Virus record (IMG/VR): IMGVR_UViG_2737471840_000002
Span: 1-12,082 of that record
DNA from: a virus
Lineage: Duplodnaviria > Heunggongvirae > Uroviricota > Caudoviricetes
Length of the DNA stretch: 12,082 bases
Direction: 5' to 3' (one strand)
Part shown: positions 1-9,869 of the stretch, in pieces
How the letters are laid out: every line of letters starts with the position of its first letter
Position numbering within the stretch: position 1 is the first letter of the stretch
Position numbers and translations under genes: made by a program
The notes under the pieces: generated by a model
Told to the model about the DNA's origin: nothing
Databases searched by the model: none
What the model saw: only the letters and a program-made list of their open reading frames with translations

Positions 1-61
1 ATTGAGTGGGAATGATTAACAGCTAACTCATAGCAACTCATTCCTATTCAGATACTAATTT

Positions 62-94: not shown

Positions 95-140
95 ATGTAT
101 TCATTTCTATTCACTCTACACCATATTTTTCGGCGGTACA

Positions 141-180
141 GGTGACGGTATTACCTTAAAGGTATACTCTCATACCGTCA
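141..180 (+). promoter_or_regulatory. Integrase upstream control region: operator-like site TTACCTTAAAGGTAT (151-165), -10-like TATACT (163-168), nested inverted repeats TGACGGTA (144-151)/TACCGTCA (173-180) and GGTAT-N6-ATACC (161-176)
   Basis: Direct inspection; the palindromes are exact. The operator-like site matches the TTACC-N5-GGTAA motif found elsewhere in the window at 9 of 10 positions. Confidence 0.45.
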
Positions 181-207
181 TGAAAATGGTTTCTATACGG
201 GTGAATT

Positions 208-1464
208 GTGCTTACCGATACAAAATTAAAAAACCTCAAGCCGCAGGACAAACTGTACAAGGTCTCCGATCGTGACGGGCTGTATGTAGCTGTGCTTACG
301 TCAGGCACGGTCTCGTTTCGCTACGACTACCGTATCAACGGTCGCCGCGAAACGCTGGTAATCGGGCAGTATGGGCGTGACGGTATCAGCCTGGCAGAAG
401 CGCGAGAAGAACTGATTGCTGCAAAGAAGCTGCTTAAAGCAGGCCAGTCACCGGCTGCGGCTAAACGTGACGGTATCAAAAAGATTCGTGGTGCCGAGAC
501 GTTTGCGGTACATACCGACAGTTATATGAAACACGTCATCCTGGCTGACAGTACCCGCGCAATGAAACAGGCGGTGATCGACCGTGACATACTTCCGGTT
601 CTTGGCAATAAAATGATGGCTGAAATTACCACATCGATGGTTCGTGATTTGTGTGACCGGATTGTCGAACGCGGTGGCCGGGCAACAGCAGTGCAGGCCA
701 GGGAGATCATCAGCAGCGTATACCGTCATGCCAATGACCGTGGTCATGGTTTGTTTAATCCTGCGGCTGACATTAAACCTTCGTCTATCGCCATATTTAA
801 ACCACGAGAGCGAACACTGACACCAGAAGAAATTGGCCTGTTCTTCCGCACGCTGGATGCCATTGGTGCTATGGGCACTATGAAAATGGCTTTAAAGCTG
901 GTGCTTATCACTATGGTTCGTAAAGGCGAATTCACCAATGCAACGTGGGATGAAATAGATTTTAAAAAATGGACATGGACAATTCCTTCAGACCGCATGA
1001 AGGGAAGCCGGGCGCACGTTATTTACCTGCCTAAACAGGCACAGGATATATTGGTTGGGTTGCAGATGTGCGCTGGTGGAAGTGAATATCTGGTTCCTGG
1101 TCGTTACAATTTCCGGAAGCCATTATCTAATGCCGCGCTGAACTCTCTGATCGACAGAACGGTGAAAATAATAAATGAAGATGGTGAGCATATTCAGGAC
1201 TTCACCGTACACGATATGCGCCGTACAGCAAGTACGTTGTTGCATGAGGCTGGTTATCCTTCAGACTGGATTGAAAAGGCTCTGGCACATGAGCAGAAAG
1301 GTGTGCGCGCCGTATATAACAAAGCGGAATACGCCAGACAGCGCGCCTACATGTTGCAGCAGTGGGCCGATATGATTGATTCCTGGATTGACGGGGAGCA
1401 TACGGATCTGATTCCGTTCTCCCCGTCGAAGTTTGAGAAGTGGATGGAAGACAGTAATAAATAA
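208..1464 (+). CDS. int: Tyrosine-type site-specific integrase, P4-like (N-terminal DUF4102-type arm-binding domain)
   Basis: GTG start at 208. N-terminus LTDTKLKNLKP...DGLYVAV is typical of P4-family integrases; C-terminal catalytic region has HDMRRTASTLL (R, H) and LAHEQKGVRAVYNKAEY (catalytic Tyr context). 418 aa. Confidence 0.9.
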   Translation: MLTDTKLKNLKPQDKLYKVSDRDGLYVAVLTSGTVSFRYDYRINGRRETLVIGQYGRDGISLAEAREELIAAKKLLKAGQSPAAAKRDGIKKIRGAETFAVHTDSYMKHVILADSTRAMKQAVIDRDILPVLGNKMMAEITTSMVRDLCDRIVERGGRATAVQAREIISSVYRHANDRGHGLFNPAADIKPSSIAIFKPRERTLTPEEIGLFFRTLDAIGAMGTMKMALKLVLITMVRKGEFTNATWDEIDFKKWTWTIPSDRMKGSRAHVIYLPKQAQDILVGLQMCAGGSEYLVPGRYNFRKPLSNAALNSLIDRTVKIINEDGEHIQDFTVHDMRRTASTLLHEAGYPSDWIEKALAHEQKGVRAVYNKAEYARQRAYMLQQWADMIDSWIDGEHTDLIPFSPSKFEKWMEDSNK

Positions 1465-1466
1465 TT

Positions 1467-2126
1467 CTATCCTTCCTGGACTTTGGTAAGCGTCAGATTT
1501 CCGCAGAACACTGCGCCGGTGTCGATGTACATCTGGTTTGCATACACCAGTGGGTGATGTGCTGGCGTATGACCGAAGATGAACAAATCGGCACCGGTTA
1601 TCTCCGAGACAATACCGTCCTGCGCGTCGCTAACCCGTTCACGATTCCATATCACCATTTCTTCTGGTACTGGCTTATCGAATGCGTATTCGTTGTGCGG
1701 GTAGTCTGCGTGACAGATGACGACCTTCTTATTGCCGGTAACCAGTTCGATAATCATCGGGAGGTTGGTAATCTTTGGCAGAAGGTATTTGAGTTGCACA
1801 TCCTGCTCAGAATCAAGTTGGTGCCACCATCCACCGCCGTTTGACATCCAATGTCCGAAACTTCCGCCGTTGACCAGTGCATCCAGCATCATCTGCTCAT
1901 GGTTGCCACGAACAGCTCGGAACCACGGCATAGTAATCAAATCCAGGCATTCGACGTTTTCAGCGCCGCGGTCAACAAGGTCACCAACGGAAATAAGTAA
2001 ATCGCGCGCCGGGTCGAATGAAACTTTGTCGAGTTCGTTCATCAGCAGCGTGTAGCACCCATGCAGATCGCCGACGACGAAGATATTGCACCAGTCAGCG
2101 CCATTGATGCGTTGATATAGGTTCAT
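1467..2126 (-). CDS. Lambda-type Ser/Thr protein phosphatase (PPP-family metallophosphoesterase; PrpA/PrpB/NinI-like)
   Basis: Motifs GDLHG, GDLVDRG, GNHE in canonical order; strong recalled similarity to E. coli PrpA. Start assigned to internal ATG ([12 protein letters not shown]...) at 2126, forming an ATGA overlap with the upstream gene stop; the track ORF extends to 2246 but that would overlap the methylase gene. Confidence 0.88.
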
Positions 2127-2773
2127 GCTGCACGCTCCCGCCCCTGGTTGTCTATTGGTGACACCGGAGCATTGCTGAATGCATTTGTTAATCCGCCAAT
2201 ATCCAACGCGTATCCAGGGTGTAGTTGCACTGCCGGGTCTTCGCACTGATTACCCCAAACATCGAAGCCATGAGACGACTGGCGGGCGAACAGTTCAATG
2301 CGAGAAACATCGCCTAACAATTGCACAAGTTTTTCACGAACGACATCTGGTTTTCTTGAATGCTCAAGCCGCGGTGCGGTAAATGACTGAACGATCCCTG
2401 CATTAATGCGCGGAGGTAGTTTTCCCTTTACTGCAAACAGGCAATCTTCACTATTGGCGCGAGTCATGTGTCCCATACCCATAACCAGTTTATCTGGTTG
2501 TCGACTACCACATTTTATCCACGTGAAGCCCTTCATCGTCATCAGACGGAATCCCCAGGCTTCAACAACTTTTAGTGCTTCGAGTGGTTGTGTTGGCACC
2601 CACCACATGGCCAACAGACAGTTTTCATCGGCCAAATCCCACACAGGAAGGCGGCAGATATCCAGCACACTCATAACCGGATATTTAAAACCGGCACCGC
2701 GATTACCATCTGCGGCTTTGTCCCGGTATACCCAGGGTGGATCTGCATAGATTAGTGTGTATTTCTTAGTCAT
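2123..2773 (-). CDS. MT-A70 family DNA N6-adenine methyltransferase (orphan, no cognate restriction gene visible)
   Basis: N-terminal motif LIYADPPW (DPPW catalytic motif) right after start MTKKY; ATG at 2773 preceded by GGGGTGG SD-like sequence; track ORF starts 12 nt further upstream at GTG 2785. Confidence 0.8.
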
Positions 2774-3174: not shown

Positions 3175-3423
3175 TCATGCAGCGTTGCTCACAGGACGAT
3201 ATACACGTTGCTGAACAGGAGGCTTTTTACCCTGGAACTCTGCCGGGCTTGCTGCCTGACGTTCATCAAGCCAACGCTCAACTTCATCACGGTTCCATGC
3301 GCAGCGTTTATCGGTGATATACCAGCGTTTAGGAAATTCCCCTGCGCGCTCCATACGGTCGATAGTGCTCCATGACAGTGGCACCACCGCCAGGAGTTCC
3401 TTCTTACCTAATGCACCTTTCAT
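3175..3423 (-). CDS. AlpA-family phage regulatory protein (excisionase-like HTH; Phage_AlpA/MerR-like fold)
   Basis: 82 aa; the segment KKELLAVVPLSWSTIDRMERAGEFPKRWYITDKRCAWNRDEVERWLDE matches the AlpA/Xis-type winged-helix pattern (conserved W after the HTH, EV..W). RBS AGAGAGG 6 nt upstream of ATG 3423. Confidence 0.75.
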   Translation of the reverse strand: MKGALGKKELLAVVPLSWSTIDRMERAGEFPKRWYITDKRCAWNRDEVERWLDERQAASPAEFQGKKPPVQQRVYRPVSNAA

Positions 3424-6687: not shown

Positions 6688-6702
6688 TTACCGTTGAGGT
6701 AA
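6688..6702. promoter_or_regulatory. Operator-like palindrome TTACC-GTTGA-GGTAA (OL-proximal, overlapping pL -10/+1)
   Basis: Exact 5+5 inverted repeat with 5-bp spacer. Confidence 0.6.
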
Positions 6703-6749: not shown

Positions 6750-6764
6750 TTACCAGTTAGGTAA
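6750..6764. promoter_or_regulatory. Operator-like palindrome TTACC-AGTTA-GGTAA (OL-distal)
   Basis: Exact 5+5 inverted repeat with 5-bp spacer. Confidence 0.6.
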
Positions 6765-6821: not shown

Positions 6822-7406
6822 TTATTGTTTGTTTTTTTCGTTCTGGTTGATGACAAATTCAATGTAACTTTCGATCTTTGCTTTCTCGGTTTCGGGTAAC
6901 AATGCGTAGCGCGAGCGATCATAGTTGATGGTCGCAGGGTCGTGCGGGTGAATCAGTAATTCATAGCCGTGACGCCCGAATGCGGATGCAACATTCTCCA
7001 GGGTGGAAATGGAAACGCTGACCTCATTGTTTAACAGGCGGCTGATTGTCACCTGGGCGACGCCGGATGCGCGGTGTAGTTTTCCCTGCGTTGAAAGGTC
7101 GCGGCTTTCGCTCATCCAGCGTTCCAGGTTGTGAGCCGCCAGCTGACCAATGTCGCTTGGGCCGACAGGCTGAAAACCTTCCTGAGAAAGCGAGCGATCG
7201 ATATCAAGCCAGTTACGTGGTTTATTGGCGGCAGCTTCAATTTTTCGCGCAACCTGGTCGCCGATAACCTTCTTGCCAAGAGCCCAGCGGTTTACCAGAT
7301 TTGCCTGAGTTCCAAGTTTTTCTGCCATCCGCGTCTGAACACCATTGAATTCACGGTCGATCAAGTCGTTGAGATTTTGCCTGCGGACGTCTTGGATACT
7401 TTTCAT
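6822..7406 (-). CDS. CI-like prophage repressor with two XRE-type helix-turn-helix domains and no LexA-like S24 peptidase domain
   Basis: 194 aa. HTH-1 about residues 20-60 (QTRMAEKLGTQANLVNRWALGKKVI), HTH-2 about residues 110-150 (ASGVAQVTISRLLNNEVSVSISTLENVA). Position and orientation equivalent to lambda cI (divergent from cro-like gene, followed by terminator and pL). No S24 motif visible. Confidence 0.65.
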   Translation of the reverse strand: MKSIQDVRRQNLNDLIDREFNGVQTRMAEKLGTQANLVNRWALGKKVIGDQVARKIEAAANKPRNWLDIDRSLSQEGFQPVGPSDIGQLAAHNLERWMSESRDLSTQGKLHRASGVAQVTISRLLNNEVSVSISTLENVASAFGRHGYELLIHPHDPATINYDRSRYALLPETEKAKIESYIEFVINQNEKNKQ

Positions 7407-7461: not shown

Positions 7462-7524
7462 TTACCCAACAGGTAAATGCACCCCATAGGTAACTATCCT
7501 TGATTTTTGTTACCTTATGGGTGA
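7462..7524. promoter_or_regulatory. OR-like tripartite operator: TTACC-CAACA-GGTAA (7462-7476), gcACC-CCATA-GGTAA (7479-7493), TTACC-TTATG-GGTgA (7510-7524)
   Basis: Three copies or near-copies of the same palindrome between the divergent repressor and Cro-like genes. Confidence 0.65.
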
Positions 7525-7846: not shown

Positions 7847-7861
7847 GTACCTCAAAGGTAA
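7847..7861. promoter_or_regulatory. Operator-like palindrome GTACC-TCAAA-GGTAA (9 of 10 match)
   Basis: Immediately after terminator, upstream of candidate -35 TTGATC (7879-7884). Confidence 0.45.
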
Positions 7862-9792: not shown

Positions 9793-9807
9793 TTACCTAT
9801 TGGGTAA
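9793..9807. promoter_or_regulatory. Operator-like palindrome TTACC-TATTG-GGTAA
   Basis: Exact match to motif, upstream of promoter-like hexamers. Confidence 0.55.
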
Positions 9808-9826: not shown

Positions 9827-9855
9827 TTGATTTCGTGTCTTATGTGGTTTTTAAT
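9827..9855 (+). promoter_or_regulatory. Promoter-like: -35 TTGATT (9827-9832), 17-bp spacer, -10 TTTAAT (9850-9855)
   Basis: Hexamers and spacing; sandwiched between two operator-like palindromes in the same way as the pL-like promoter. Confidence 0.45.
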
Positions 9856-9869
9856 TACCTCAGAGGTAA
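9855..9869. promoter_or_regulatory. Operator-like palindrome TTACC-TCAGA-GGTAA overlapping the RBS of the downstream gene
   Basis: Exact match; GAGG of the site doubles as SD for ATG 9873. Confidence 0.55.

Follow-up and report, generated by a model that had tools for sequence, protein, structure and literature searches.

Candidate integrase arm-type sites around a putative repressor operator in attL of a phiV10/epsilon15-like prophage

The window, the whole stretch of 12,082 nucleotides analysed here (IMG/VR record IMGVR_UViG_2737471840_000002), is the left end of a phiV10/epsilon15-like prophage inserted in the 3' end of E. coli guaA. A cluster of inverted repeats lies upstream of its integrase gene, int. 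Our analysis suggests that the region, bases 131-180, is probably part of the P' arm of the attachment site, in which inverted integrase arm-type sites surround a repressor operator and control a weak int promoter. The repeats are most likely the ordinary control region of the well-known phiV10/epsilon15 group rather than a new kind of element. The region has already been annotated in epsilon15 and phiV10, and attL arm sites that overlap an int promoter are a known pattern; no concept is changed, because that arrangement is already established. What is new here is a family-wide 9-mer, the change of this word in GIsul2, a synonymous-site constraint within int, the operator reading of the inner palindrome, and a case against the RNase III label that the repeat has carried.

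Together, these results would give a testable map of integration and excision control in a prophage group common in E. coli and Salmonella. The map proposes which bases are read by the integrase, and proposes that one 9-mer serves the guaA-targeting integrase family across Proteobacteria, a family that includes relatives of the sul2 resistance island GIsul2. It also proposes that int may be under direct repressor control, and it corrects the 'RNase III site' label in the epsilon15 reference record.

Position and geometry of the repeats in attL

The left boundary of the prophage was located with a junction query. Genomes without the element matched only up to window base 17, and the phage-form record matched from window base 1. 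Since host homology stops at 17 and phage homology begins at 1, bases 1-17 (+ strand; ATTGAGTGGGAATGATT) are the att core and the left prophage boundary (attL). They consist of the last 15 nt of guaA, with its stop codon TGA at 13-15, and two further nucleotides. The same 17-mer is the experimentally shown attP/attB core of ZX5, phiV10 and epsilon15 (PMC9782041). The E. coli C6 chromosome carries a prophage that is 100% identical to the window; there guaA is annotated to end at window base 15, and int (208-1464) follows guaA on the same strand. The repeats thus sit in element DNA, 126-163 bp inside attL. An earlier note, made from the letters alone, had suggested that they might belong to the att region, and the boundary bears this out. 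The same note had named as its refutation a location in unrelated host DNA; comparison with element-free genomes instead puts the boundary at window base 17.

Bases 1-1447 are 98-99% identical to phiV10, ZX5 and other E. coli Uetakevirus phages, and ~82% identical to epsilon15-like phages of Salmonella, Enterobacter and Klebsiella. The int region is carried by 547 of 5426 complete E. coli genomes (~10%). Between the core and int, a terminator scan revealed an intrinsic terminator on the + strand at 62-95, with a 10-bp stem (62-85) followed by a T run. The phiV10 and epsilon15 records list it as rho-independent, and it is conserved in relatives. We infer that it ends guaA transcription before int in the lysogen; in the phage form it also separates int from the lysis genes.

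Direct reading and a repeat finder gave a perfect 9-bp outer inverted repeat, formed by TGACGGTAT at 143-151 and ATACCGTCA at 172-180 with 20 nt between the arms. The earlier note had placed 8-bp arms at 144-151 and 173-180; its right arm holds, whereas its left arm was one base off, TGACGGTA being 143-150. The operator-like TTACCTTAAAGGTAT that it reported is present at 151-165 and contains a 13-bp palindrome, TACCTT-A-AAGGTA (152-164), and sequence reading confirmed its TATACT -10-like hexamer at 163-168. The second palindrome that it described, GGTAT-N6-ATACC, exists at 161-165 and 172-176 but is not nested in the outer repeat, as the ATACC at 172-176 also belongs to the outer right arm. 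Because GGTAT is present twice (147-151 and 161-165), this palindrome is an alternative way of pairing that ATACC, and the repeated GGTA/TACC cores account in part for the "nested" geometry.

By itself, a perfect 9-bp inverted repeat is weak evidence. The window has 10 such repeats with a loop of at most 40 nt against 2.2 expected under a first-order Markov model, and ~2.6% of simulated 207-nt leaders contain one under the same loop limit. The words of the repeat depart strongly from chance. Allowing one mismatch at most, TGACGGTAT is present 11 times in the window compared to 1.9 expected, a count reached by 0 of 200 shuffles, and the five exact copies all fall within 143-728. Bases 135-155 and 161-166 are invariant in 13 relatives with diverging flanks.

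Arm-type words upstream of and within int

The int gene (208-1464, + strand) begins with a GTG start codon and encodes a P4-type integrase with the domains PF13356, PF22022 and PF00589, which is 99% identical to the phiV10 and ZX5 integrases. PF13356 (Arm-DNA-bind_3) covers residues 2-87 (E = 3.9e-20) and constitutes a separate N-terminal arm-DNA-binding domain. A divergent integrase series, from 90% down to 47% identity, was obtained from a genome scan and covered Enterobacteriaceae, Morganella, Edwardsiella, Oceanimonas, Chromobacterium, Rhodocyclaceae, Cupriavidus, Caulobacter and Phenylobacterium. A scan of viral contigs with the integrase returned only relatives of 98-100% identity, many of them cut at the int start, and these were left out of the comparison.

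The outer arms of the repeat are copies of TGACGGTAW, a motif shared by alpha-, beta- and gamma-proteobacterial loci. Over 42 loci, the 260-nt stretches ahead of int (10.8 kb in total) contain the exact 7-mer GACGGTA 124 times against ~1.3 expected, the latter figure being arithmetic from the per-nucleotide rate. The flanks upstream of int are unrelated between loci, and nearly all loci have several copies of the word. The consensus from 104 sites is T-GACGGTA-W, and in the common layout two direct copies 12 bp apart precede an inverted copy, with one more direct copy coming last.

The window can be aligned with this layout. The left arm, TGACGGTAT at 143-151 (+ strand), is invariant in the 13 close relatives, fits the family consensus and is a protein_bind feature labelled 'integrase' in the epsilon15 record. 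Upstream of it, the degenerate arm-type site CGGCGGTAC at 131-139 (+ strand, 6/9 matches) opens a tandem direct pair with a repeat distance of 12 bp; in Klebsiella relatives the position reads as a perfect TGACGGTAT, and a direct pair at this distance is found in most family members. The right arm at 172-180 (- strand, read as ATACCGTCA on the + strand) is the inverted copy that follows the direct pair in nearly all family members. Variants of 172-180 occur in relatives and are not accompanied by compensation in the left arm, 143-151. Here, 29 bp separate the second direct copy from the inverted one, compared to 38-42 bp in most pairable island-type loci, a difference of about one helical turn that suits proteins bound on one face of the DNA.

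A repeated non-core word is found on both sides of the core. To the right are 143-151 and 172-180; to the left, in the phage form, is a tandem pair ~60-80 bp from the core, where GTGACGGTATATAAAACGGTA is invariant in four phage genomes with varying flanks. The GIsul2 integrase, which is 54% identical, has the same layout built from CATGG(T/C)AT / ATACCATG. The same layout with a different word suggests that the arm word changes with the integrase. Collectively, the motif conservation, the family layout, the left-of-core copies and the co-variation in GIsul2 suggest that the outer arms, 143-151 and 172-180, are best read as integrase arm-type sites, one of the candidates that the earlier note had put forward.

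Arm-type copies are also present inside int. TGACGGTAT at 378-386 (+ strand) covers int codons 57-60 and is exact in 18/18 gamma-proteobacterial members of the family, and TGACGGTAT at 468-476 (+ strand) covers codons 87-90; both are marked 'integrase' in the epsilon15 record. A degenerate inverted copy, ATACCGACA at 512-520 (- strand), has 8/9 matches in this lineage, and its position reads TTACCGTCA in Pantoea, Morganella, Edwardsiella and some beta-proteobacterial members. Across the 18 gamma-proteobacterial int genes, the third base is invariant in only 11 of 110 codon columns, and eight of these 11 lie in the three motif copies (codons 57-59, 88-89 and 102-104). Among the 42 columns in which a degenerate amino acid is invariant, four have an invariant third base, and all four are in motif copies. 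Residue 57 is A, C, I, P, R or S, with the third base always the T of TGACGGTA; the codon after 88-89 is ATC, ATT, ATA or AAA, with the ninth base of the word always A or T. This third-base invariance suggests that 378-386, 468-476 and the degenerate 512-520 are selected as DNA. With distances of up to 520 bp from the core, the in-gene sites lie beyond the range of classical arm sites. An exact TGACGGTAT at 720-728 was considered as a fourth in-gene site and was dropped, as it is not conserved in relatives.

The inner palindrome, the candidate int promoter and alternative readings

The inner palindrome, ATTACC-TTAAA-GGTATA at 150-166, is a candidate 17-bp Rep-type operator. It contains an exact TACC-N5-GGTA core and a full, perfect ATTACC left half; its right half is GGTATA compared to GGTAAT in the consensus, so that the last two bases differ. 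The operator consensus rests on the annotation of epsilon15, whose record has seven ATTACC-N5-GGTAAT sites annotated 'repressor', and on counts in this analysis. Exact TACC-N5-GGTA occurs seven times in the window against 0.08 (about 0.1) expected, and 13 times in epsilon15, 12 times in BUCT711 and 12 times in Tyrion against ~0.6 expected, an enrichment of 20- to 80-fold in the four genomes. The majority of copies lie in intergenic DNA in front of genes or gene blocks, and in each of the four genomes one copy is just upstream of int.

Related sites in the window were found using the inner palindrome as the query, with TTACC-N5-GGTAA (at most one mismatch) as the refined pattern. Two of them (7462-7476 and 7510-7524) lie between the repressor and cro-like genes, which are divergent, and the remainder are intergenic, at 6688-6702, 6750-6764, 7847-7861, 9793-9807 and 9855-9869. 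Three other operators in the window lie within promoter-like matches, one of which has its spacer exactly filled by the operator. The repressor gene (6822-7406, - strand) encodes a full-length homologue of the Salmonella phage SPC32H Rep protein (PDB 5D50, E = 1.9e-41, residues 1-189), and we propose, from the motif, that this repressor binds 150-166 as well as the other seven operators.

The half-sites ATTACC and GGTATA are invariant in the 13 relatives, and the N5 spacer has six forms. The palindrome is at -56/-55 in 13/13 phage-type loci, for which only the neighbouring phage genes point to the presence of Rep. Of the more distant loci, 0/23 have it there; most of these are shown to be island-type, and one has a palindrome copy at -42. 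In the epsilon15 record, 150-166 is unmarked as a repressor site, and the whole repeat is marked as an RNase III site. The repressor site suggested in the earlier note agrees with these results, in that the inner palindrome appears to fit the repeated operator motif of the phage's own repressor.

We then consider how int may be transcribed. Transcription runs away from the core (core 1-17, terminator 62-85, int start 208), which places the 5' control region of int within attL. Since the terminator stem at 62-85 isolates int, int needs a promoter in 86-207. The candidate is the -10-like hexamer TATACT (163-168, + strand), which has 5/6 matches and was read from the sequence. In relatives this position is TATACT, TATAAT (epsilon15), TATATT, TATATC or TATATG, the final T being lost in two relatives. 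A manual search gave GTGACG (142-147) as its sole -35 partner, a poor one with a 15-bp spacer. A sigma-70 scan returned no promoter in 1-600, and visual inspection of island-type relatives showed no consistent -10 element from the second site to the third. TATACT with GTGACG appears to be the best int promoter candidate, and it would be weak at best.

The right half of the operator also matches the arm word at 7/9 positions, or 8/9 in Klebsiella relatives, so that the inner palindrome may instead consist of additional integrase sites. Under this reading, each of the five GGTA/TACC elements in 131-180 (in the order direct, direct, inverted, direct, inverted) would be an integrase arm site, with the inner palindrome formed by two overlapping degenerate ones; there would be no operator, and the region would serve only assembly of the recombination complex and autoregulation. 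TGACGGTAW is matched at 7/9 positions by TAAAGGTAT (157-165) and also by TTAAGGTAA, the reverse complement of 151-159; the 8/9 match of the Klebsiella relatives is TTACGGTAT. Position four of the N5 spacer is always A, matching A3 of the arm word, and the T that follows GGTA in 150-166 is found in 64/104 arm sites compared to only 2/40 other operator sites in the four genomes. Against this, the repressor motif is matched by the full ATTACC half and by the exact spacing of TACC-N5-GGTA, the palindrome is confined at its position to the 13 phage-type loci while the 23 distant loci without it include island-type loci that keep their arm sites, and arm sites elsewhere in the family strongly favour ACGGTA over AAGGTA. 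We consider it unlikely, though with an appreciable chance, that integrase alone accounts for the region. The inner palindrome might also be bound by the AlpA-like protein, acting as directionality factor, as int activator or as both. The AlpA-family gene (3175-3423, - strand; PF05930) probably encodes the recombination directionality factor of the module; such a gene accompanies this integrase family almost everywhere and adjoins int in nearly all island-type relatives. The weak candidate int promoter might need an activator, and in CP4-57 AlpA reportedly activates intA transcription. The palindrome is absent, however, from island-type relatives that keep both int and alpA, and it belongs to a motif of 7 to 13 copies clustered around the repressor gene, ahead of genes and gene blocks, which would be unexpected for a directionality factor. 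Nothing ties the AlpA-like protein to bases 131-180, and binding by it here seems improbable, even though excision of GIsul2 is stimulated by AlpA (PMC9376610). Better candidates for AlpA sites are the lineage-specific direct repeats at 38-50 and 101-113, between the core and the arm sites. These repeats were also considered as inverted copies of the core (11/13 and 10/13 matches here) and were dropped in that role, as the match is ~9/13 in relatives. The IHF site that the earlier note had listed among its possibilities was not recovered: 1-1810, including the leader 1-210, has no match to WATCAANNNNTTR with at most one mismatch. A one-mismatch match to the IHF consensus lies left of the core in the phage form, outside the window.

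The label 'RNaseIII, mRNA processing' at 26874-26912 of the epsilon15 record implies an RNA hairpin in the int leader that, like lambda sib, would be an RNase III site controlling the stability or translation of the mRNA. The 42 nt of 141-182 do fold at -16.1 kcal/mol with z = -4.2, a value as expected for any inverted repeat, but in the context of 131-207 the z-score is only -1.5. The helix, 9 + 5 bp interrupted by a 7-nt bulge, would be short for an RNase III substrate, and the loop ranges from 20 to about 30 nt across the family. Compensatory changes were seen in 0/14 pairs among the 13 relatives, with counts not above shuffles; variation is all one-sided, leaving four stem cells unpaired and four changed to G-U. 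Furthermore, pairing cannot explain why the specific word is also present in direct orientation, across the core and inside int, and if transcription starts after TATACT the left arm would be untranscribed. An Rfam search gave no family match, its two sub-threshold chance matches both being outside 143-180. With no covariation in the 13 relatives and no Rfam family, the RNA-structure reading was rejected and is, in our view, very improbable. That the symmetry in 131-180 is a functionless chance arrangement would agree with the ~2 perfect short-loop 9-bp inverted repeats expected per 12-kb window. It is hardly credible given the invariance of 135-155 and 161-166 in 13 relatives despite diverged flanks, motif counts that far exceed every shuffle, and an arrangement kept family-wide.

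From the att position, motif identities, conservation and co-variation observed above, we infer which protein would bind at each site, where the promoter would lie and in which direction regulation would run under the preferred reading, that of integrase arm-type sites around a repressor operator. The N-terminal arm-binding domain of the integrase would bind 143-151 and 172-180, with the degenerate 131-139 as a third site, and integrase bound at arm-type sites and the core would assemble the recombination complex. The operator at 150-166 would lie between the inverted sites, sharing two bases with the left site and overlapping TATACT, so that repressor bound there would keep the int promoter off in the lysogen. 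Since the arm sites bracket the candidate promoter, the integrase would limit its own synthesis; bound at the flanking sites, it would keep that synthesis low, as KplE1 IntS does. Loss of the repressor on induction would release int, and the AlpA-like factor would be supplied from early leftward genes.

A bolder version of this arrangement is tentative and rather unlikely to hold in full. It states that arm sites extend at least 520 bp into int and override synonymous codon choice there, and that the operator is wedged between arm sites such that it blocks the excision complex. If true, the in-gene sites could extend the P' arm to an unusual length or could act from within the gene as an autoregulatory roadblock or loop. 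The bound repressor would physically prevent formation of the excision complex at attL, which would couple immunity to the recombination chemistry as well as to int transcription.

Comparison with known systems

The orthologous attP-int region is found in epsilon15 (AY150271.2), phiV10 and ZX5, with 82% DNA identity to epsilon15 and 98-99% to phiV10 and ZX5; all three share the 17-bp guaA core and the terminator with the window. The epsilon15 record marks GTGACGGTAT 10-mers as 'integrase' at the equivalents of window 142-151, 377-386 and 467-476. It marks the same 39-nt inverted repeat too, but as an RNase III site and with the inner palindrome unmarked. The labels in that record are all predictions. 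At the level of sequence, our comparison backs the 'integrase' label and speaks against the RNase III one, and it contributes the operator reading. For the latter, the relevant systems are SPC32H Rep and the epsilon15 repressor sites: the window encodes a full-length Rep homologue and has the same palindrome at divergent promoters and at other intergenic sites. In contrast to the epsilon15 repressor sites, the right half of 150-166 ends in TA rather than AT, and 150-166 stands alone, whereas several other operators have a partner at a distance of 62 bp. Within limited literature coverage, we found no report of Rep binding upstream of int.

The guaA-targeting genomic island GIsul2 (PMC9376610) provides a more distant comparison. 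In addition to its 54% identical integrase, it has the same GAGTGGGA crossover region at the guaA end, the same layout and an AlpA-family partner. It differs in that the word is CATGG(T/C)AT rather than TGACGGTAT, in that there is no repressor-type palindrome, and in being an island rather than a phage. Arm sites are not described in the GIsul2 paper (PMC9376610).

As in lambda-type attP, a repeated non-core word is present here on both sides of the core, in both orientations and with tandem pairs. The lambda-type integrase has a separate N-terminal arm-binding domain too, whereas the domain here is of a different family (PF13356, P4 type). Compared to the lambda type, the sites here extend rightward from the core over at least 520 bp, and the P' arm has no IHF consensus.

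The arrangement can also be compared with the attL/intS promoter of KplE1 (CPS-53), with its IntS and TorI proteins, and with the related int arrangement of P4. In KplE1, arm-type sites in attL overlap the intS -10 box and mediate negative autoregulation (PMC2951348). As here, int points away from the core and the promoter is inside attL, the integrase has an N-terminal domain with an arm-binding annotation, and int and the directionality factor gene are transcribed separately. There, the arm sites overlap the promoter and the integrase represses its own gene, whereas here the promoter is a candidate and the same regulation is suggested by analogy. The target is the protein gene guaA here compared to a tRNA gene in KplE1, and the proposed second regulator is the prophage repressor here compared to the directionality factor in KplE1. 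Unlike in KplE1, the arm-type copies here extend into the coding sequence of int.

Arm-type words within the integrase gene and beyond the core

The arm-type word TGACGGTAW, a predicted integrase site, also occurs inside the integrase gene itself (int, window 208-1464, plus strand), where copies lie at window 378-386, 468-476 and 512-520. Across 18 int genes, 11 third-codon positions among 110 codons were invariant, and 8 of these 11 fell within the in-gene copies of the word. At residue 57, six different amino acids were found across the 18 genes while the third base was constantly T. Judged by this pattern of codon variation, the in-gene arm-type words constrain synonymous positions of int. 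In alpha-proteobacterial relatives an in-gene copy lies elsewhere, at +66. Outside the window, the P arm left of the core in the phage form carries an invariant tandem pair, GTGACGGTATATAAAACGGTA (phiV10, L002, 1419-1440), and about 35 bp left of the phiV10 core (L002 ~1475-1490) is ACTCAATTGGTTA, which has one mismatch to the IHF consensus.

Repeats around the terminator

The direct repeat TCATT(C/T)CTATTCA is present at window 38-50 and 101-113, on either side of the terminator. Both copies are retained, as TCAnnnCTATTCA, in 13 relatives. At the corresponding position, island-type relatives carry tandem repeats specific to their own lineages, such as two copies of CTATCGG with an 11-bp period. 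These repeats between the core and the arm sites may be binding sites of the AlpA-like directionality factor.

Repressor-type operators

Repressor-type operators were often paired, at a spacing of exactly 62 bp. Such pairs were found in the window (6688-6702/6750-6764 and 9793-9807/9855-9869), epsilon15 (32556/32618 and 35908/35970), Tyrion (34196/34258 and 37266/37328) and BUCT711 (4211/4273). This pairing would suit a tetrameric repressor that bridges two palindromes. No partner at this distance accompanies the candidate operator ahead of int. Separately, a TACC-N5-GGTA palindrome (TACCAGATTGGTA) is located upstream of int in Pantoea sp. (L095, ~1159-1171), whose integrase is 71% identical, at a position (-42) other than that of the palindrome in the window; it is flanked by one inverted and one direct arm site.

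Ends of int and comparison with known elements

CGGGTGAA, at window 198-205, lies 3-10 nt upstream of the int GTG start within an otherwise variable leader, and is invariant except for its penultimate A, which is altered in 1 of the 13 relatives. It occupies the position of a ribosome-binding site yet matches one poorly. Directly after int is a serine/threonine phosphatase gene (window 1467-2246, minus strand), as in phage PAS61, whereas phiV10 has a small DUF1382 gene there. Since similarity to phiV10 ends at window 1447, a mosaic junction is placed at the end of int. GACGGTA was absent upstream of int in GIsul2 of plasmid pAB3 (L136 1320-1480). The site layout of this region is that of the window, including a perfect 14-nt inverted repeat, CCGATACCATGCTG/CAGCATGGTATCGG, with the word CATGG(T/C)AT instead.
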